Assembly: GCA_046351555.1 (NCBI GenBank)
Contig: JAXLYI010000029.1
Location: 109,727-165,768 of the forward strand
Length of the DNA stretch: 56,042 nucleotides
DNA from: Polyangiales bacterium
Lineage (GTDB): Bacteria; Myxococcota_A; Polyangia; Polyangiales; Ga0077539
Reading direction: 5' to 3'
The notes beneath the pieces are model-generated. The model was not told where the DNA came from, searched no databases, and worked only from the letters and a program-made list of their open reading frames with translations. Made by a program: the position numbers and the translations under genes. Positions 1,493 to 10,247 of this stretch are shown here, in pieces. The number at the start of each line of letters is the position of its first letter. Positions within the stretch are counted from its first letter, which is position 1.

Positions 1493-2263
1493 TCAGCCGG
1501 GGTTGAGCACGGTCCCGTCGACGCCGGCGTCGAGGGGAGGGTTGCACGCGGCCCCTGTCACCACCTGCCACACCTCGTGCGCGCACACGACCTGGATGGA
1601 GATCGGCAGGTTGCCCGGGCACGGCACCGTGTAGCTGCACGGCGTCGCGTCGAGGCGCGCGCAGGGATCCCCCGCGGCCGGCGCCGTGGCGGGGCACGCG
1701 GCGCTCGACGCGTCGGCGTCGGTCGTCGCGTCGACGTCGGCCGTCGCGTCGACGGCGTCGAGGGGGACGTCGGGCGGCGGGTTGCAGGAGACCTCCGTGA
1801 CCTGCCACCCCGTCGACGTGCACGACGCGGAGATGGGGGCGCCGCCGAAGGGAGGGCACGGCGCGCCCGTGTAGTTGCACGGGCCCGTCAGCCGAGCGTC
1901 GCACGACGCGCCTTGCGTGGGGACCGACGACGGGCACTGCGGGGGCGCTTCGTCCGTGGGGACGTCGCCCCCGTCGCCCGAGACCCGGGGCGGGTTGCAG
2001 GAGACCTCGAAGACGCTCCACCGCCCGCCGACGCAGCGCCCCGTGGGCCCCGACGGCCCCCACGGCGGGCACGGCACGCCTCCCCAGGAGCACGTAGTCT
2101 CCTCCGGGAGCGAGCAGGCCTCCCCGCTCATCGGCGCGCTCATCGGGCACGACGCGTCGCCCCCAGACGTCGGAGGATCCGTGGACGTGAGCGAGCACCC
2201 CTCCATTGCTGCGCCCACCACCGTCACCACGAACGCCGCCCGCAACACCTTGCTTCGCTTCAT
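1493..2263 (-). CDS. secreted lipoprotein with three tandem ~50-aa Cys-rich modules
   Basis: Lipoprotein signal MKRSKVLRAAFVVTVVGAAMEGCS. Repeated pattern C...C..G.PCPP.G...C..G.W.V.EVSCNPP occurs three times. Confidence 0.65.
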   Translation of the reverse strand: MKRSKVLRAAFVVTVVGAAMEGCSLTSTDPPTSGGDASCPMSAPMSGEACSLPEETTCSWGGVPCPPWGPSGPTGRCVGGRWSVFEVSCNPPRVSGDGGDVPTDEAPPQCPSSVPTQGASCDARLTGPCNYTGAPCPPFGGAPISASCTSTGWQVTEVSCNPPPDVPLDAVDATADVDATTDADASSAACPATAPAAGDPCARLDATPCSYTVPCPGNLPISIQVVCAHEVWQVVTGAACNPPLDAGVDGTVLNPG

Positions 2264-2295
2264 GGGGTTCTCCTCTTCACAGTGCGTGCCGCGCG

Positions 2296-2313
2296 GTGAA
2301 CGTCTCCGTTCAC
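2296..2313. promoter_or_regulatory. perfect palindrome GTGAACG-N4-CGTTCAC in the divergent intergenic region between the Cys-rich lipoprotein gene and the ACP operon; candidate operator
   Basis: Read directly: gtgaacgtctccgttcac. Confidence 0.3.
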
Positions 2314-2610
2314 GCTACGCCGCCTTCGATCGCCCATGACGTTGGCGTCACGGTGTGCCTAAGAGCCTCCGCCCCCGTCGGGGAGCGCGGCGCGCCCGAC
2401 CGCCGGGGAGACGTGATCCGACATGAGTGCGAGACGCCCGCCCCCGCCTTCAAGAATTCGTGAGCCGCGACCCCCAACTGGCGCCGTCGCGCGACGGCCC
2501 GCACTCCCTCCCCGCCTGCGGTGTGCGGGGCGTCGCACGGGGCGCCCGCGGGATGCCCGATCTCCCGCGCGGCACCGCGGTTGCTGCCGTGTTCGCGTGG
2601 AGAGCCGCTG

Positions 2611-2880
2611 ATGCACACGCCCCCCGACGCGACCGCCCTCGCGGTGCGCCAGACCATCGCCGACACGCTGCGCCGCGCCCTCGACGAGGTCGCACCCGAC
2701 GCGACCTTCGACGGCGCGGGCCTCGGGCTCGACTCCCTGGCGGTCATCCAGGTGCAGGTGGCCCTCGAAGAGCGCTTCGACGTCGCCCTCCCCGACCTGC
2801 TCGACGACGACTCCGCCCGGCCCCGCGCGGTGCGCGACGTGGTCGCCCTCGTGGCCGCGCTCGCGGCGGGGCGTTCGTGA
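2611..2880 (+). CDS. acyl carrier protein
   Basis: Phosphopantetheine attachment motif GLGLDSLAVIQVQVALEERF; ~90 aa; stop overlaps the next start (TGATG). Confidence 0.8.
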   Translation: MHTPPDATALAVRQTIADTLRRALDEVAPDATFDGAGLGLDSLAVIQVQVALEERFDVALPDLLDDDSARPRAVRDVVALVAALAAGRS

Positions 2881-3806
2881 TGGGCGCCCCGCGCACCCGC
2901 GCCGAGCGCGAGGCCGCCGCGCGCACGCCCGCCGAGCAGGTGGCCCACGAGCGGGCCGCCGTCGCCGCCCACTACGAGCACGACCCGGCGGTGTTCGCGC
3001 TGGTGCTCGACCCGCGCCTCGCCTACGCCACGGGCGTCTTCGAAAGCCCCGACGACGACCTCGCCGCCGCGCAGGAGCGCAAGTTCGCCCGCGTCGCCGC
3101 GAAGCTCGCGATCCGGCCCGGCGAGCGCGTCCTCGACGTGGGCTGCGGCTGGGGGTCGAACCTCCTCTACCTCGCCGAGCACACGGGCGGCACCTTCCAC
3201 GGCATCACGCTCAGCGCCGCCCAGCGCGCCGAGACGCTCGCCCGCGCCGAGGCCCTCGGCGTGGCCGACCGCGTCCGCGTCGACCTCTGCCACATCGAGT
3301 CCCTCGCGGCCGAACCGCAAAGCTACGACGCGGTGCTGTTCTCCGGGAGCATCGTCCACATGCACCACCGCGCGGAGGTGCACGCCGCGGTGGCGCGGAT
3401 GCTCCGGCCCGGCGGGCGGCTCCTCATCTCCGACTGCTACTTCCCGGCGCAGCCCCGCGGCGACCGGGAGAGCGCCGCGACCCACCACATCTTCGTCGAC
3501 GCCCTCGGCTACTGCCGCCTCGTCACGCTCTCCGAGGAGCTCTCCCTCATCGAGCAGGCCGGCCTCGACGTCCTCCACGTCGAAGACCTCACCGCCCACT
3601 ACGTCCTCACCGTCGACCGCTGGATCGACAACGTCCGGCGCAACCGCGCCCGCATCGAGGCCCTCGCCCCGGGCTTCTCGCGCCTCCTCCAGTCGTACAT
3701 GACGGTCGGCCGGCTGAGCTTCGCGCGACGCACCGCCCTCGAGTACATGATCCTCGCGACGAAGGGGCGCCCCGCGGTCGACGTCGGGCGCTGGGCCCTG
3801 CCGTGA
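2880..3806 (+). CDS. cyclopropane-fatty-acyl-phospholipid synthase family SAM-dependent methyltransferase
   Basis: SAM motif VLDVGCGWGSNLLYLAEH. CMAS-like N-terminus YEHDPAVFALVLDPRLAYATGVFE. Start overlaps the ACP stop. Confidence 0.85.
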   Translation: MGAPRTRAEREAAARTPAEQVAHERAAVAAHYEHDPAVFALVLDPRLAYATGVFESPDDDLAAAQERKFARVAAKLAIRPGERVLDVGCGWGSNLLYLAEHTGGTFHGITLSAAQRAETLARAEALGVADRVRVDLCHIESLAAEPQSYDAVLFSGSIVHMHHRAEVHAAVARMLRPGGRLLISDCYFPAQPRGDRESAATHHIFVDALGYCRLVTLSEELSLIEQAGLDVLHVEDLTAHYVLTVDRWIDNVRRNRARIEALAPGFSRLLQSYMTVGRLSFARRTALEYMILATKGRPAVDVGRWALP

Positions 3807-5461
3807 CCGCGCCGCCCGACACGATGGCGTCGCTCGTGCGGGCGCGTGCCGAGCGGTCGCCCGACGACGTCGCGCTGTGCACGCGCCGCGACGGGCGGTG
3901 GACGCCGTGCACGTGGGCCTCGCTCTGGGAGGACGCCCGCCGGGTCGCGTCGGGCCTCGCCGCGGCGGGGCTGCGGCCGGGCGACCACGCGCTCTTCCTG
4001 CTGCCCGAGGTGGAGCTCGCCGTCCCGATGCTCTTCGGCGCGTGGGCGCTGGGCGTGGTGCCCGCGATGGTGGGCGTCCCGTTTCGTCTGACGGACGTCG
4101 CCCGCTTCGTCGACGGGCTCCGCGACACCGCGCGCCGCCTCGACGCCCGCGCGCTGGTGACCTCGCGCGCGCTCGCGGCCTTCGCGACCGACGCAGAGGC
4201 GCTCCCCGTGATCGCCGCGGAGGACCTCCTCGCCCACGACGTCGCCCCCTTCGCGGTGGCCCGCGCGTCCGCCGCGCCCGCGCTCATCCAGCCCACCAGC
4301 GGGAGCACCGGCCGCCCGCGCGGGGTCGTCCTCGCCCACGACCGCCTCCTCACCCACGTCGCGTGCGTGAGCGCCGCGCTGCCCGCCGACGCGTCGTCCG
4401 TGGGCCTCTCGTGGCTCCCGCTCCACCACGACATGGGGCTCGTCGGGGGCCTGCTCTACCCGCTCGTCAACGGCTTCGTCGTCCACCTGCTCCCGCCCGC
4501 GGACTTCCGCGCGAGGCCCTTCTCATGGCTGGAGGCGATGAGCGAGCTCCGCGCCACGATGACCGCCGCGCCGCCGTCGGCCTACGCGGTCGCAGCGCGC
4601 CTCGCCCCGCGCGCCGCCGCGGCGGGGCTCTGCTTCGACGCGTGGGCGTGCGCGATGGTCGGCGCCGAGCCCGTCCGACCCGCCGCGCTGCGCCGCTTCG
4701 CCGAGGGCTTCGCGCCGCTGGGCTTCCGCGCGGAGGCGTTCTTCCCGGTGTACGGGCTCGCCGAGGCGACCGTGGCGGTCACCTTCCCGCGGCCCCTCGC
4801 GCCCACCCGCGTCGACGTGGTCGACCGCGACGCGATCGAGCGGGAGGGCCGGGCGGCGCCCTGCGACGCGTCGGCGCGGGCGATGGAGTTCGTCTCGGTG
4901 GGCGCGCCCATCCCGCGCACCGAGGTGCGTATCACCGCGGGCGACGGCGGCGCGCTGCCCGAGCGCCGCGTCGGGGAGATCGTCGTCCGCTCGCCGTCGC
5001 TGATGGTGGGCTACCACGACGAGCCCGAGGCCACCGCGGCGGCGCTGCGCGACGGGTGGCTGCACACGGGCGACCTGGGCTACCTCGCCGACGGCGAGCT
5101 CTTCGTCACGGGCCGCGTGAAGGACGTCATCCTCCGCGGCGGGCACGGGATCCTCCCGACGGCGGTGGAGGAGGCGGCGTCGGAGGTCGAGGGCGTGCGC
5201 GCGGGCTGCGTCGCGGCGGTCGGCGTGCCCGACGAGGACACCGAGCGCTGCGTCGTCCTCGCCGAGACCCACGAGGCCCCCTCGGCCCACGCCGCGCTCG
5301 AAGCCCGCGTCCGCGGCGCGCTCGAAGCCAGAGGGCTCTTCGTCGACCGCGTCGTGCTCCTCCCGCCCGGCGCGCTCCCCCGCACGACGAGCGGCAAGCT
5401 GCGCCGCCGCGCCGTCGCCGACGCGCTCGCCGCGGGCCGCGCGCTGGAGGCGGCGGAGTGA
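3803..5461 (+). CDS. fatty acyl-AMP ligase / acyl-CoA synthetase family adenylating enzyme
   Basis: AMP-binding motifs QPTSGSTGRPRGVVLAHD, YGLAEATV, TGDLGY, SGKLRRR. GTGA overlap with the upstream methyltransferase. Confidence 0.85.
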   Translation: MTAPPDTMASLVRARAERSPDDVALCTRRDGRWTPCTWASLWEDARRVASGLAAAGLRPGDHALFLLPEVELAVPMLFGAWALGVVPAMVGVPFRLTDVARFVDGLRDTARRLDARALVTSRALAAFATDAEALPVIAAEDLLAHDVAPFAVARASAAPALIQPTSGSTGRPRGVVLAHDRLLTHVACVSAALPADASSVGLSWLPLHHDMGLVGGLLYPLVNGFVVHLLPPADFRARPFSWLEAMSELRATMTAAPPSAYAVAARLAPRAAAAGLCFDAWACAMVGAEPVRPAALRRFAEGFAPLGFRAEAFFPVYGLAEATVAVTFPRPLAPTRVDVVDRDAIEREGRAAPCDASARAMEFVSVGAPIPRTEVRITAGDGGALPERRVGEIVVRSPSLMVGYHDEPEATAAALRDGWLHTGDLGYLADGELFVTGRVKDVILRGGHGILPTAVEEAASEVEGVRAGCVAAVGVPDEDTERCVVLAETHEAPSAHAALEARVRGALEARGLFVDRVVLLPPGALPRTTSGKLRRRAVADALAAGRALEAAE

Positions 5462-6090
5462 CCGCGCTCGAGGCGCTGACCCTGCGCGGCGACGCGGGGT
5501 GCCTGGAGGCCCTCTGGCAGCCCCACCCGGGCGCGGCGGGCGCGGCGCTGGTGTGCCACTCGCACCCCGAGTACGGCGGGAGCGTGCGCGACCGGGTGGT
5601 CCACCGGATGGCGCGCGCGCTGGGGGCGGCGGGCTTCGCGGTGCTCCGCTTCAACTTCCGCGGCGTGGGGGCGAGCGAGGGGCGCTTCGACGGCGGGCGG
5701 GGCGAGCGCGACGACGTGCGGGCCGCGATCGACCACCTCGCCCGCGCACACGGGCGCGTCCTGGTGGCGGGCTACTCCTTCGGCGCGTGGGTGGGGCTCG
5801 CGGCGGGGGCAGCCGACCCGCGGGTGTCCGCGCTCTGCGGCGTGGGGGCGCCGGCGGACGTGTTCGATTTCGCCGCGGTGCGCGACGTCGGGAAGCCGCT
5901 CCTCGTCGTGCAGGGCGACCGTGACGAGTGGGGCTCGCTCGCGCACGTCCGCGCGGCGGTCGCGGCGGCCGGCGCGCGCGGGCACCTCGCGGTGATCCCC
6001 GGGGCCGACCACGCGTTTCGCGGCGGGCTCGACGCGATGATGGGCGCGGTCGAGGGCGGTGCCCGACAGGTGAGCCTCAGACCGGCGTGA
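5458..6090 (+). CDS. alpha/beta-hydrolase (thioesterase/acyltransferase-like), ~210 aa
   Basis: Nucleophile elbow GYSFGAW. GTG start overlapping the FAAL stop (GTGA). Terminal D/H residues present. Confidence 0.7.
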   Translation: MTALEALTLRGDAGCLEALWQPHPGAAGAALVCHSHPEYGGSVRDRVVHRMARALGAAGFAVLRFNFRGVGASEGRFDGGRGERDDVRAAIDHLARAHGRVLVAGYSFGAWVGLAAGAADPRVSALCGVGAPADVFDFAAVRDVGKPLLVVQGDRDEWGSLAHVRAAVAAAGARGHLAVIPGADHAFRGGLDAMMGAVEGGARQVSLRPA

Positions 6091-7606
6091 CCATGCGGTG
6101 CTTCGCGGGCCGCGACTCGTGCTTCGCCGTCAGCCGCGCGAGGCGCCGCGACAGCTCCTGCCGCAGCCCCTCGAAGGGAACCACCGCGTCGACCACCAGC
6201 TCGCTGGCGAGCTTGTAGAGGTCGATGTCCTCGCGGTACTCCGCGCGCAGCTTCGCCACGTAGGCCTCGCGCGCCTCGCCCTCGGGCTGCTCCTGGATCT
6301 TGTTGTAGTACACCGCGTTGACCGCCGCGTTGGGGCCCATCACCGCGATGCTCGCCGTCGGCAGCGCGAGGCACACGTCGGGCTCGAAGGCCGGGCCGCA
6401 CATCGCGTAGAGCCCCGCCCCGTAGGCCTTCCGCACCACCACGCTGATCTTCGGGACGCGCGCGTCGCTCATCGCGGCGATCATCTTCGCGCCCGCGCGG
6501 ATGATGCCCTGCTGCTCCACCTTGGTGCCGATCATGAAGCCCGGCACGTCGGCGAGGTAGAGCAGCGGCACGTTGAAGGCGTCGCACAGGGTAATGAACC
6601 GCGCGGCCTTGTCGGCCGAGTCGACGAAGAGCACGCCGCCCTTGTAGTAGGGGTTGTTGGCGACGATGCCCACCGCCTGCCCCTCGATGCGGGCGAAGGC
6701 CGTGATGATCTCCTGGGCGAAGAGCTTCTTCACCTCGACGTAGCTGTCGCGGTCGATGAGCTCGCGGATGAAGAGCTCCATCTTGAAGGGCTTGTTCTCG
6801 TCGACGGGGACGATGTCCTCGAGGCGCTTGCCCGAGGCCGCGGGCTCGACGGGCTCGATGCGCGGCACCCGCTCGCGCCAGCTCTGGGGCATGTACGCGA
6901 GGTAGCGCTTCGCCCAGGCGATGGCCTCGTCCTCGCTCTTCACCAGCACGTCGCCGCAGCCGGAGACGGAGCAGTGCATCTTCGCGCCGCCCATCTCCTC
7001 CAGCGTCACCTTCTCGCCGATGACCATCTCGGCCATGCGCGGCGAGCCGAGGTACATGCTCGCGTTGCCGTCGACCATCACCACCACGTCGCAGAAGGCC
7101 GGGATGTACGCCCCGCCCGCCGCGCTCGGCCCGAAGAGCAGGCACACCTGCGGGATCTGCCCGGAGAGCTGCACCTGGTTGTAGAAGATCCGCCCCGCGC
7201 CGCGGCGCCCGGGGAACATCTCCACCTGATCCGTGATGCGCGCGCCGGCCGAGTCGACGAGGTAGAAGAGCGGGCACTGGAGGTCGCGCGCCACCTCTTG
7301 AATGCGAAGGATCTTCTCCACCGTGCGCCAGCCCCACGAGCCGGCCTTGATGGTGGAGTCGTTGGCCATGATGGCGACGGTGCGGCCGCCGACGGTGGCG
7401 GTGCCGGTGACCACGCCGTCGGCGGGGAGCTCGGGGTCGCGGTTGTTGGCGAGGGCGGCCTCCTCGATGAAGCTCCCCGGGTCGATGAGCCGGGCGATGC
7501 GCTCGCGGGCGAAGAGCTTCCCCTCCTTGGCGGCCTTCTGGTGGTACTTCTCGGCCCCGCCGCGCTCGACGCGCGCGAGCGTCTCCTTGAGCTTCGCGTC
7601 TGACAT
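6077..7606 (-). CDS. pccB: acyl-CoA carboxylase carboxyltransferase subunit (propionyl-CoA carboxylase beta / methylmalonyl-CoA carboxyltransferase family)
   Basis: Full-length match to the carboxyltransferase fold: ARERIARLIDPGSFIE, GRTVAIMANDSTIKAGSWG, LYLADVPGFMIG, VVVRKAYGAGLYAM. Confidence 0.9.
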   Translation of the reverse strand: MSDAKLKETLARVERGGAEKYHQKAAKEGKLFARERIARLIDPGSFIEEAALANNRDPELPADGVVTGTATVGGRTVAIMANDSTIKAGSWGWRTVEKILRIQEVARDLQCPLFYLVDSAGARITDQVEMFPGRRGAGRIFYNQVQLSGQIPQVCLLFGPSAAGGAYIPAFCDVVVMVDGNASMYLGSPRMAEMVIGEKVTLEEMGGAKMHCSVSGCGDVLVKSEDEAIAWAKRYLAYMPQSWRERVPRIEPVEPAASGKRLEDIVPVDENKPFKMELFIRELIDRDSYVEVKKLFAQEIITAFARIEGQAVGIVANNPYYKGGVLFVDSADKAARFITLCDAFNVPLLYLADVPGFMIGTKVEQQGIIRAGAKMIAAMSDARVPKISVVVRKAYGAGLYAMCGPAFEPDVCLALPTASIAVMGPNAAVNAVYYNKIQEQPEGEAREAYVAKLRAEYREDIDLYKLASELVVDAVVPFEGLRQELSRRLARLTAKHESRPAKHRMVTPV

Positions 7607-7677
7607 AGGTGGCGTCGACGGGTAGTCGAACGCGCCCGCCCGCGCAATGGCATCCTCGCGGTGGTAGCGTCGGCCGC

Positions 7678-9015
7678 ATGAAGCGGGCTTGGGTTCTGTT
7701 GCTTGCGGCGGGGTGCGCCAACACGGTCAGCGGGACGGGGAGCGCCGCAACGCCGACGACCAACCTCGACGTGACGGTGATCCTCTGGGCCCGCACGCCG
7801 GGGGCGCCGGGCGTCGGCGTGCCCGCCGTGGCCGAGGCGGACGACGGCACCTTCGCGTTCGGCGCCACCGACGCGAGCGGCCACCTTCGGATCAACCTCG
7901 ACCCGGCCCGTCGCTACGCCGTCACGCTGGTTCCGTCGGGCTACGTGCCCGTGTCGCTGCTGGGGGTCGCGGTCCCGTTTCGAACGACGGTGCGGCTCCA
8001 ACCCGTGGAGACGGGCCTCCGCCCCGCGGACGCGACGGTGTTCTCGCGGCGGGTCGACTACGCGGGCCGCCGCGCGCCGGCCAACCGCGTCGCGGTGGAG
8101 GGCGGCTTCAGCCACTTGATGAACGCGCCGAGCGGCAACGACTTCGTGGTGGAGGACTGGCCCAACGCGCCAGGGCTCGCGCTCTCGGCGATCGAGTTCG
8201 ACGGGGCCGGCGGGCTGCCGATCCGTGCGTACCGCCTCGGCAACACGCCGCGCCGCACGAGCGAGGCGCTGTCGGTGGACTTCTCCGGGCCGACGCTGCC
8301 GGCGATGACCGGGGCGAGCGTGCTGGAGTTTCCCGTGGTGGGGCAGGTGAGCAACACGATGTCCGTGGTGCCGCGGCGCGCGCTGGTGTTCCAGCGGAAG
8401 TACACCGCGACGGGCGACCGGCCGGCGACGGTGGGCGCCGCGCAGCTCGAGCCCCCGACGCCCGGGCGCGCCGCGCGGATGATCGTCACGTCGTTCGAAG
8501 GCGAGCTCCGCCCCGAGCGCGTGGTGGCGACCTTCCGCGTCGACCCGCTCACCCCGCGCGACCCCACGCGCGAGGTGGCCTTCGCCACGCGCCCGCCCTT
8601 CGCCGGCCTCGCCATCGCCCTCCCCCCGGTGCAAGACCTCCGCGTCGAGAACACCACCGCCGCCACCACCCAGGGGCTCGCATGGCAATACCCGCCCCGC
8701 CTCCACGCCGACACGCGCGGGTGGCACCGGGCGGCCTTCGCGGTGTTCGTTGGCGACTCCCTGCGCTGGGAGGGCTTCGCCGTCGACGCCGCGCCGTGGG
8801 TCGGCCTCCCCCTCCCCTCCCGCTTCCCCGTGCCGCTCACGGGCGCGCCGCGCGTGTCCTCTTCGCTCCACGCGTGTCTCCTGCGCGACGACCCCACCGC
8901 CACCGAACCGCCCTGGGCCCAGGCGCCCCTCATCGACGAAGCGGGCGCGGCGTCGCTCGGCCGCTCGCTCCTCCGCGTCTGCGCGATCGGCACCGACCGC
9001 CCGCCCAGCGGTTGA
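7678..9015 (+). CDS. hypothetical lipoprotein
   Basis: Lipoprotein signal MKRAWVLLLAAGCAN; coding-like composition; no recognised domain. Confidence 0.55.
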   Translation: MKRAWVLLLAAGCANTVSGTGSAATPTTNLDVTVILWARTPGAPGVGVPAVAEADDGTFAFGATDASGHLRINLDPARRYAVTLVPSGYVPVSLLGVAVPFRTTVRLQPVETGLRPADATVFSRRVDYAGRRAPANRVAVEGGFSHLMNAPSGNDFVVEDWPNAPGLALSAIEFDGAGGLPIRAYRLGNTPRRTSEALSVDFSGPTLPAMTGASVLEFPVVGQVSNTMSVVPRRALVFQRKYTATGDRPATVGAAQLEPPTPGRAARMIVTSFEGELRPERVVATFRVDPLTPRDPTREVAFATRPPFAGLAIALPPVQDLRVENTTAATTQGLAWQYPPRLHADTRGWHRAAFAVFVGDSLRWEGFAVDAAPWVGLPLPSRFPVPLTGAPRVSSSLHACLLRDDPTATEPPWAQAPLIDEAGAASLGRSLLRVCAIGTDRPPSG

Positions 9016-9050
9016 CGCGCGCGCCCCCCGGAGCGCAGGCTCCGCGCGTC

Positions 9051-10247
9051 ATGACCCGCGCCACGCTCCTCGCCGCGCTCGCCCTCGCGGCGTGCTCGCC
9101 CAACACCGTCGGCCCCGGCAGCAACGCCACCGTCGACGGCGCCACGCCCGACGGCGCGCTCCCCGACGCCGGAACGCCTGACGGCCTCACGGTCGACGTG
9201 CTCACCAGCGACGGCGCGGTCCCCTCCGACGCGACGGTCACCAACGACCTGCCGAGCACCACCGACGTCCCGACCACCACCGATGTCCCGATGACCACGG
9301 ACGCGCCCGCGGCGTCGCTGCGCGGGATGTGGCGCGCGGTTCGCTACGAGTTCACCAGCGAGGGGCGTTCGTACACGCTCACCGACCGCGACACGCCCAT
9401 CGACCAGGGCACCGGCGTGTCGACGCCCTTCCGCGTCAACGGGCTCCTCTACCTCGACCCCACGCACTTCGCGATCACCTTCGGCACGCTCGCGATGGGC
9501 TACTTCTACACGTACACCCCGATGGTGACCGGCGACCTCGGCTACACCGCCGCGGGCTACGGCGTGCCCGGCGTGCTCGACGACGCGCGCGGGGAGTTCG
9601 CGATCACGGGCTCGCCCACGCCGACGCGCTTCGCCCGCAACGCCGACGGCTCCATCTCCTTCGTCGACCCGACCTCCGGCGCCCGCACCACCTACGCGCG
9701 CACCAGCACCCCGGGCCCCGCCCTCGCCTCCATCAACGCCGCGGGCCTCGCGGTGGTCGCGGAGGGCTTCACCCCCGCCGCCACGCACCCGCGCGTCGCG
9801 CTCCTCTGGGACCTCCGCGGCGACGCGCGCTGGCTCGAGACCAACGGCACCGCGGTGCGCTTCGCCACGCGCTTCGCGACCTTCCCGCTCACGCTCACCG
9901 CCGCGCCGACGGAGGCCGTCACCGCGTGGATGGGCAGCCAGGTGGCCGTCGCGCGCATCGTCGCGTACGAGGACGCCAACAACAACCTCGCCTACGACCG
10001 CGGCGCCGACCCGCTGCTCGGGCTCTCGCCGGTCGCGATCACCTGGCGCGCGGCCGCGGACTTCGCGCCGTCGGGCGCCGGGCACTTCCCGCTCCGCCAC
10101 GTGCCCGACGGCCTGCGCTACGGCCACGCGCACCCCGACTACGCGCTCGGCCGCGAGGACGTCGTCTCCTTCGACCACGCCGTCCCCGTCTCGCCCGGCG
10201 TCCCGATCCAGCGCATGCCGCCGGGCGGCCTCCCCGAGATCCTCTGA
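9051..10247 (+). CDS. hypothetical lipoprotein
   Basis: Signal MTRATLLAALALAACSPN; T/D/P-rich linker followed by a globular region. Confidence 0.55.
   Translation: MTRATLLAALALAACSPNTVGPGSNATVDGATPDGALPDAGTPDGLTVDVLTSDGAVPSDATVTNDLPSTTDVPTTTDVPMTTDAPAASLRGMWRAVRYEFTSEGRSYTLTDRDTPIDQGTGVSTPFRVNGLLYLDPTHFAITFGTLAMGYFYTYTPMVTGDLGYTAAGYGVPGVLDDARGEFAITGSPTPTRFARNADGSISFVDPTSGARTTYARTSTPGPALASINAAGLAVVAEGFTPAATHPRVALLWDLRGDARWLETNGTAVRFATRFATFPLTLTAAPTEAVTAWMGSQVAVARIVAYEDANNNLAYDRGADPLLGLSPVAITWRAAADFAPSGAGHFPLRHVPDGLRYGHAHPDYALGREDVVSFDHAVPVSPGVPIQRMPPGGLPEIL

Follow-up and report, generated by a model that had tools for sequence, protein, structure and literature searches.

A conserved acyl carrier protein, methyltransferase and acyl-AMP ligase gene trio from Polyangiales with a predicted role in fatty-acid tailoring

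We analysed a 56,042-nucleotide stretch of DNA from a Polyangiales bacterium (contig JAXLYI010000029.1, positions 109,727–165,768; here called the window), which has a G+C content of 70–79%. Close to its start, four genes with overlapping stop and start codons encode an acyl carrier protein (ACP), a short methyltransferase (MT) that uses S-adenosylmethionine (SAM) and belongs to the superfamily of the cyclopropane fatty acid (CFA) synthases (CFAS) and mycolic acid synthases (CMAS), a fatty acyl-AMP ligase (FAAL) and a small α/β-hydrolase. The ACP–MT–FAAL cassette is a conserved functional unit. On balance, we favor its assignment as a self-contained module for the ACP-dependent methylation, or related tailoring, of a fatty acid, whose product is probably not a cyclopropane. 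A preliminary description, made from the letters of this DNA alone, had envisaged loading of a fatty acid onto the ACP by the FAAL, methylation or cyclopropanation on the carrier, and release by the hydrolase. The logic of loading and on-carrier methylation largely stands, in line with the FshA/FshE/FshF system and with sister gene clusters described below, while the cyclopropane and the core role of the hydrolase are not supported. The four genes are arranged as follows.

ACP gene, 2611–2880, plus strand: ATG start, 89 amino acids, from the sequence and the list of open reading frames (ORFs).
MT gene, 2880–3806, plus strand: ATG start, 308 amino acids, a short-form SAM-dependent methyltransferase of the CMAS/CFAS superfamily.
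FAAL gene, 3803–5461, plus strand: GTG start, 552 amino acids, a fatty acyl-AMP ligase.
α/β-hydrolase gene, 5458–6090, plus strand: GTG start, 210 amino acids, the last gene of the cassette.

The ACP and MT genes overlap by 1 nt (TGATG, 2878–2882), and the MT/FAAL (GTGA, 3803–3806) and FAAL/hydrolase (GTGA, 5458–5461) junctions are 4-nt overlaps, so that sequence and ORF list agree with the gene arrangement first described. The tightness of these stop/start overlaps suggests that carrier, loader and modifier are co-expressed in stoichiometric amounts. A Shine–Dalgarno sequence, GGAGAG, is found 8–13 nt 5′ of the ACP ATG, and the ACP, MT and FAAL starts agree with independent gene calls on near-identical metagenome contigs. 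The four family assignments were also confirmed, with Pfam matches to PP-binding (PF00550, 1.2e-10), CMAS (PF02353, 2.8e-40), AMP-binding (PF00501, 3.7e-54) and Abhydrolase_11 (PF20408, 1.8e-10). In a protein search the exact MT was present only on two short metagenome contigs, one of which, L001, is 99.3% identical to the window across 3.6 kb. The nearest named relatives are from Sorangium, Polyangium, Minicystis and Nannocystis (Polyangia, Nannocystia), from which we conclude that the window derives from an uncultured myxobacterium.

We retrieved 16 orthologous loci, with MTs 63–78% identical to the window MT, from Sorangium, Minicystis, Nannocystis, Vitiosangium, Hyalangium and metagenome-assembled genomes (MAGs). 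They span three myxobacterial classes, and four of the MAGs are labeled as other phyla. The FAAL gene lies 3′ of the MT gene in every locus (FAAL orthologues 49–63% identical) and the ACP gene lies directly 5′ of it in 15; the contig of the sixteenth (L015) begins 67 nt before the MT gene. ACP–MT–FAAL is the only gene set conserved across the 16 loci, with its order kept and otherwise unrelated flanks; all-against-all clustering of the ORFs in the 10-kb flanks gave no other family common to more than a few loci. The 4-nt stop/start overlaps are repeated in L003, L004, L092 and L093, the four loci for which external gene calls exist. A scan of genome contigs for the generic pattern VLDVGCGW found at least 12 orthologous loci, a number that carries no estimate of prevalence. 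The proposal that the cassette acts as a functional unit is borne out by this recurrence: among the close relatives, only the locus at the contig edge lacks the ACP. The accompanying statement that relatives of CFA synthases are not operonic with an ACP and a FAAL is outdated. No entry from a named Myxococcus, Corallococcus or Stigmatella was among the best 120 matches of either search, and nothing was found in the literature on a Myxococcus xanthus orthologue. The MT family is probably absent from the model species, which probably accounts for the lack of literature on it.

The best PDB match of the ligase was the E. coli FAAL (EcFAAL, 3PBK, 2.4e-69) and the next top matches were all FAALs. 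Relative to E. coli FadD, the ligase contains a 22-residue insertion (the AIEREGRAAPCDASARAMEFV region) at the position of the FAAL-specific insertion, and this stretch aligns to EcFAAL with one single-residue gap. The elements of FAALs that block the CoA pocket are a FAAL-specific helix and the EcFAAL residues W224, M231 and F279 (PMC8460268). In the helix, PPADFRARP aligns without gaps to EcFAAL RTQDFAMRP (R251–P259), where FadD has a 3-residue gap, and the equivalents of W224 and M231 are retained (SWLPLHHDMGL), but that of F279 is Ser. The ligase is a FAAL-type enzyme outside every curated subfamily. It is predicted to adenylate a fatty acid and to pass the acyl group on to the neighboring holo-ACP, not to CoA.

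The CMAS match of the MT covers profile positions 5–266 of 273 and lies above the gathering score. The MT shares 25% identity with E. coli Cfa and lacks the N-terminal domain of CFA synthases (~100 residues), the alignment to Cfa beginning at around residue 107–112. We take the bicarbonate site of E. coli CFAS to comprise E239, H266 and Y317, together with the C139 and I268 positions (Iwig et al.; Courtois & Ploux). Mapped onto the MT, E239 becomes V159, H266 becomes S184, C139 becomes T51 and I268 becomes Y187, and the sole position retained is Y317, as Y241. Two of the three bicarbonate-ligand side chains, E239 and H266, are therefore substituted. V159, S184 and the adjacent D185 are invariant in 42 MT orthologues, and with both of these ligands replaced throughout the family cyclopropanation is unlikely as the default outcome. 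The neighboring loop, residues 189–201, is polar and Arg-rich, with R193, G194 and S198 invariant and R196 near-invariant.

The MT scores under the cutoffs of the curated equivalog models NF008686 (100.7 against 400 bits), NF053839 (149.5 against 600), NF040703 (124.1 against 650) and NF040660 (75.6 against 390). Long-form relatives of 400–460 residues from Arthrobacter, Solirubrobacterales and other taxa are 31–38% identical to the MT, and its identity to long-form CFAS-type proteins reaches at most ~42%. In alignments the long forms retain the YSCA and GMxEH motifs. Five of them (Arthrobacter, Solirubrobacterales and others) retain the EH and H motifs, and among five more from other taxa EH is kept in all and H in all except L063. 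An adjacent co-directional FAAL gene was found at none of the 66 long-form loci searched, three of which had only distant or opposite-strand AMP-ligase matches. When 1.84 billion cluster representatives were searched exhaustively, the MT orthologues emerged as a discrete and strongly conserved group, with representatives at 63% and 58% identity and the next full-length relatives at ≤41%. The fold, as judged from sequence, places the MT in the CMAS-like superfamily and leaves its chemistry unfixed. By the same comparisons, the MT does not cluster with the housekeeping CFA synthases and is not one of them.

The phosphopantetheine-attachment residue of the ACP is Ser42, in LGLDSL (DSL motif), and is invariant across 8 homologues. 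This carrier is distinct from the housekeeping AcpP, scoring 35 bits against the TIGR00517 cutoff of 70. The hydrolase has a triad of Ser107 (in the GxSxG motif G105-Y-S107-F-G109), Asp156 and His185, which is invariant in 3 orthologues. Its best PDB matches (3TRD, 2I3D and 2FUK, 1.7e-32 to 2e-29) are structural-genomics hydrolases of unknown function, and a score of 74 bits against a cutoff of 300 shows that it is not SglT. Only two of the 16 orthologous loci encode it, those of Minicystis rosea (L003) and Nannocystaceae ST9 (L010). Thus, the hydrolase is not a core component as had been supposed, and is an accessory member, a candidate thioesterase or esterase for the release or editing of the product on the ACP.

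A set of sister short-form MTs, 31–40% identical to the window MT, is repeatedly ACP-linked. Where E. coli CFAS has E239, most of them carry Val, Thr or Ile, with Ser replacing H266. Of 9 sister sequences examined, 8 have Glu or Asp at the position of Asp185. The following clusters contain sister short-form MTs.

L020, Cystobacter fuscus: ACP, MT, FA_desaturase_2 (soluble acyl-ACP-desaturase-like) and FAAL, with a convergent α/β-hydrolase and 4HBT hotdog thioesterase.
L021, Micromonosporaceae MAG: phosphopantetheinyl transferase, FAAL, ferritin-like protein, 4HBT, ACP, MT, FA_desaturase_2 and α/β-hydrolase.
L098, 3481–10823: amine oxidase, DUF1365, FAAL–MT fusion, FA_desaturase_2, ACP, second short MT and Acyl_transf_1.
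L099: GNAT-like protein, ACP, ferritin-like protein, MT and ketosynthase (KS).

The FAAL–MT fusion of L098 (P0164, 850 residues) belongs to the sister clade and comes from an NCBI assembly, and we retained it as support. From its gene content, L098 may encode a multi-step pathway that tailors an ACP-bound chain. Taken together, the sister clusters point to substrates that are ACP-bound and probably olefinic.

Further genes accompany the trio at individual orthologous loci, others having no such partner. A Myxococcaceae MAG has two hotdog thioesterases beside it, Nannocystis loci have α/β-hydrolases other than the window type, and Vitiosangium and Hyalangium loci have a PlsC-type acyltransferase. 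In a Bryobacteraceae MAG (L016), the trio is part of a larger lipid operon whose genes all run in one direction (2138–9517), with a membrane FA desaturase immediately 5′ of the ACP gene. Directly 3′ of the FAAL this operon contains a thiolase-like gene, an α/β-hydrolase and a long CFAS whose N-terminal region is DUF7884, the latter ~2 kb 3′ of the trio. In L010, a FAD_binding_4 gene lies directly 5′ of the ACP gene; the methylene reductase BfaA belongs to this Pfam family. In an alphaproteobacterial MAG (L017), the start of a gene for a GNAT-like protein (4482–5624) overlaps the FAAL stop. The protein is ~380 residues long with only a faint Pfam match to Acetyltransf_1, and shares 35% identity with the L099 GNAT-like protein (7207–8346). 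It may be an acyl-ACP-dependent N-acyltransferase partner.

We propose that the FAAL would adenylate a free fatty acid and load it onto the phosphopantetheine arm of the dedicated ACP, bypassing CoA, as the family features of the enzyme imply. The short-form MT, with SAM, would then methylate the ACP-tethered acyl chain. This second step is suggested by the strict synteny, the FAAL–MT fusion of the sister clade and the precedent of FshF. The site of methylation would most likely be a cis double bond that the fatty acid carries when it is loaded, a hypothesis that follows from a fold closest to the mycolic-acid and CFA synthases and from desaturases in the sister clusters and at one orthologous locus. 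Because the bicarbonate Glu and His are replaced by Val159 and Ser184, with the invariant Asp185 adjacent, we speculate that a protein base resolves the cationic intermediate to give a methyl- or methylene-branched, or rearranged, chain and not a cyclopropane. Asp185 itself is a speculative choice for that active-site base. The last step is the weakest. In the window organism the co-transcribed Ser-Asp-His hydrolase would release the product, whereas in other carriers of the trio the chain would be released by thioesterases, or handed over to acyltransferases, encoded next door or elsewhere.

A wider version of this proposal, which we offer tentatively and as a good deal less probable than the module itself, is that the short-form MTs are an unrecognised ACP-dependent branch of the CFA/mycolic-acid synthases in which a protein carboxylate, Asp185 in the window MT, replaces bicarbonate as the active-site base. 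On that view, the trio would act as a free-standing salvage system for free unsaturated fatty acids, producing mid-chain methyl- or methylene-branched acyl-ACPs that feed an undescribed membrane or signaling lipid of Polyangia and Nannocystia. On the same doubtful footing, the trio might be the most conserved, minimal example of the short-form MT systems.

Several observations weigh against the proposed fatty-acid tailoring module. The closest PDB match of the MT is MitM, an aziridine N-methyltransferase (2.7e-25), with CFA synthases at 2e-20. No desaturase is encoded in the window cassette or at most orthologous loci, and an olefinic substrate is an assumption; more generally, both the substrate and the product of the MT family are predictions. 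Most loci are without the hydrolase, and the proposed release step is tentative. In the FAAL, the equivalent of EcFAAL F279 is Ser (APPS), and the NCBIfam FAAL models score under cutoff (PRK07768, 405.8 against 572; PRK09192, 373.2 against 600; MbtM, 311.9 against 621). The only ACP–MT fusion found, P0122 (L097, 2937–4070; a 58% identical orthologue followed by a FAAL), comes from a long-read contig covered only 1.03x. An indel may have created this fusion artificially, and we discounted it as Rosetta-stone evidence. Finally, P0124, the nearest non-orthologue and also a short form (40% identical), has no FAAL and no Pfam-detectable ACP at its locus (L094, 6436–8852), and has as neighbors a radical-SAM/SPASM gene and an arsenic-resistance cluster of the ArsD/ArsA/ArsR type. 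This context suggests that some short-form MTs have non-lipid substrates. The more specific idea that P0124 is an arsinothricin ArsM was unsupported, as NF040539 was not among the matches at E up to 1e-15.

The match to MitM gives weight to a different chemistry on the same ACP module, which we regard as unlikely although it is the strongest of the alternatives, namely that the MT is an O-, N- or enolate-C-methylase, acting on a heteroatom or an activated carbon and not on a double bond. The target might be a hydroxyl (for instance 3-hydroxyacyl-ACP to 3-methoxyacyl-ACP), the free carboxyl of a dicarboxylyl-ACP (masking of the BioC kind, for which the α/β-hydrolase would be the BioH-like esterase) or the α-carbon of a β-ketoacyl-ACP (similar to polyketide synthase (PKS) C-methyltransferases). 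The motifs GSIVHMHxR and LISDCYF of the MT resemble ESIIHMPDR and LVLTDFF of MitM, and we take them to be the positions of the catalytic His and Asp of RebM/MitM-type enzymes. However, His160 aligns with a His conserved in all the long CFAS-type relatives (EH) and is therefore undiagnostic of RebM-type chemistry. The loss of the bicarbonate ligands and the polar, Arg-rich loop, which is not lipid-like, fit a heteroatom target, as does the absence of a desaturase from most orthologous loci; against this, desaturase genes are adjacent to the MT or ACP in three sister clusters and at one orthologous locus, and the FAAL is closest to long-chain FAALs. The set of MT, ACP and α/β-hydrolase recalls BioC and BioH, an analogy weakened by the missing hydrolase at most loci.

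The module could also supply starter units to a distant PKS or nonribosomal peptide synthetase (NRPS) making a lipopeptide or polyketide, as for fischerazole, jamaicamide and cylindrocyclophane, and this we judge improbable. A FAAL with an ACP and a tailoring enzyme is a recognized loading logic of natural products (JamABC, FshAEF and a FAAL survey), such clusters are abundant in myxobacteria, and the sister clusters L021 and L099 have a KS gene close to their short-form MT. A scan of 24 ORFs from the window's first 36 kb, with 36–56 kb scanned in part, detected no PKS or NRPS domain, though. On that ground we rejected the cassette as part of a PKS/NRPS cluster, and the lipopeptide link raised in the preliminary description is unsupported. 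In addition, the trio alone is conserved, among unrelated housekeeping and environmental genes, and the very high conservation of the MT, 63–78% between classes, is more like that of a primary-lipid or physiological role than of a strain-specific metabolite. The reading of the MT as an ordinary cyclopropane-fatty-acyl-phospholipid synthase for membrane stress, with an incidental ACP and FAAL next to it, agrees with the annotation of metagenome pipelines and with the full-length CMAS match, yet is effectively refuted. We rejected it on the replaced E239 and H266, the missing N-terminal domain, scores of 100–150 bits against CFAS equivalog cutoffs of 400–650, and synteny that holds in all 16 loci. 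Canonical long-form CFAS genes are also separate, as in L016, where one lies downstream of the trio.

At the 3′ end of the cassette, a convergent gene for an acyl-CoA carboxyltransferase (6077–7606, minus strand) overlaps the hydrolase gene by 14 nt. Other neighbors encode SmpB, a PhoD-like phosphatase, a multicopper oxidase, a cellulase and a sulfatase. On the 5′ side, the divergent gene (1493–2263, minus strand) encodes a 256-residue, Cys-rich, secreted-looking protein with three repeats, each ending CNPP, and with no Pfam match.

The palindrome GTGAACG-N4-CGTTCAC noted earlier is present at 2296–2313, as a single occurrence in the window, upstream of both this divergent gene, at a distance of 33 nt, and the ACP gene, at 298 nt. 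A regulatory role was not supported. In a relative with a 97% identical MT the palindrome has three non-compensatory changes within conserved flanks, and perfect 7+7 inverted repeats with spacers of 0–10 nt are common in the GC-rich window, at 2.3 per kb. We therefore rejected it as a conserved operator. In L089, whose MT is 97% identical, 104 nt of the ACP upstream region (~2391–2494) are missing while both sides align; the missing stretch contains the GC palindrome CCGTCGCGCGACGG. The 347-nt leader had no Rfam match at E up to 1, and hence no riboswitch or known RNA was detected, and a scan of it for a sigma-70 promoter and a terminator was uninformative.

The extracytoplasmic function (ECF) sigma/anti-sigma pair described further upstream was confirmed for the sigma factor (Sigma70_r2 plus r4_2), whereas the anti-sigma ORF has no Pfam support. 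No link of the sigma factor to the cassette or to the palindrome could be shown. Their junction (567–877), which comprises the sigma 3′ end and the anti-sigma 5′ end, has ten 1–2-nt indels relative to L001 that break both frames; all ten gaps between the two sequences, and most mismatches, fall here. The sigma gene of L001 has a normal end, with a 257-residue anti-sigma-like ORF overlapping its stop, whereas in the window the sigma ORF extends to 1205 as Pro/Arg-rich sequence. The frame break is either a consensus error or pseudogenisation.

If the proposed module is correct, it would be a compact three-gene route for installing a methyl-derived branch on a fatty acid held by a private carrier. 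It would also widen the chemistry of the CMAS/CFAS superfamily to enzymes without the bicarbonate site, and predict an undescribed lipid in the cultivable Sorangium, Polyangium, Minicystis, Nannocystis and Vitiosangium. The trio could serve synthetic biology as a portable branched-fatty-acid cassette. The label ‘cyclopropane-fatty-acyl-phospholipid synthase’, given to the MT orthologues by metagenome pipelines, is a widespread mis-annotation that our analysis corrects.

We compared the trio to known systems. E. coli Cfa acts on phospholipid bilayers via the N-terminal domain that the MT lacks, and its E239, H266 and C139 are V159, S184 and T51 in the MT. The mycolic acid methyltransferases (CmaA1, CmaA2, PcaA, MmaA1–4 and UmaA) share ~26% identity with the MT, which reaches 75.6 of the 390 bits required by NF040660. 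They conserve the bicarbonate-holding Glu and His, which are Val and Ser in the MT, and unlike the MT are not organized with a FAAL and a private ACP. JamA/JamB/JamC share the three-part logic of a dedicated ligase, a carrier and an enzyme that modifies the acyl-ACP, and the CylA/CylB/CylC cassette is similar. In these JamABC-type systems, however, the tailoring enzyme is a membrane desaturase/acetylenase or a di-iron halogenase and not an MT, and the product feeds PKS/NRPS lines.

BfaB, unlike the window MT, is long-form, and it acts on phospholipid-bound oleate. In the BfaB/BfaA route to 10-methyl stearate and tuberculostearic acid, this CFAS-family MT methylates a mid-chain double bond without forming a cyclopropane, and the methylene intermediate is reduced by the FAD-binding oxidoreductase BfaA (PMC5660069, PMC7791843). 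The FAD_binding_4 gene of L010, a possible BfaA homologue, resembles this arrangement, whereas the window and most orthologous loci have no FAD enzyme.

The closest architecture is that of fischerazole biosynthesis in Fischerella sp. PCC 9431. There, the FAAL FshA loads a C12–C16 fatty acid onto the free-standing ACP FshE, and the CFAS-related MT FshF methylates the FshE-tethered cis-9-hexadecenoyl chain, giving vinyl-branched and cyclopropanated products (PMC13548996). FshF lies outside the characterised CFAS/CMAS clades (PMC13548996, 2026). The likeness is one of architecture, a FAAL-loaded free-standing ACP with a CFAS/CMAS-related MT. The fsh genes are part of a large PKS/NRPS–halogenase cluster that feeds a lipopeptide, whereas the window genes stand alone among housekeeping genes and are conserved as a trio. 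By analogy, FshA/FshE/FshF is the experimental precedent for a CFAS-related MT working on a FAAL-loaded acyl-ACP. Thus, the trio is best filed as akin to the known ACP-dependent fatty-acid tailoring cassettes, its new element being an uncharacterised CMAS-like MT with a divergent active site.

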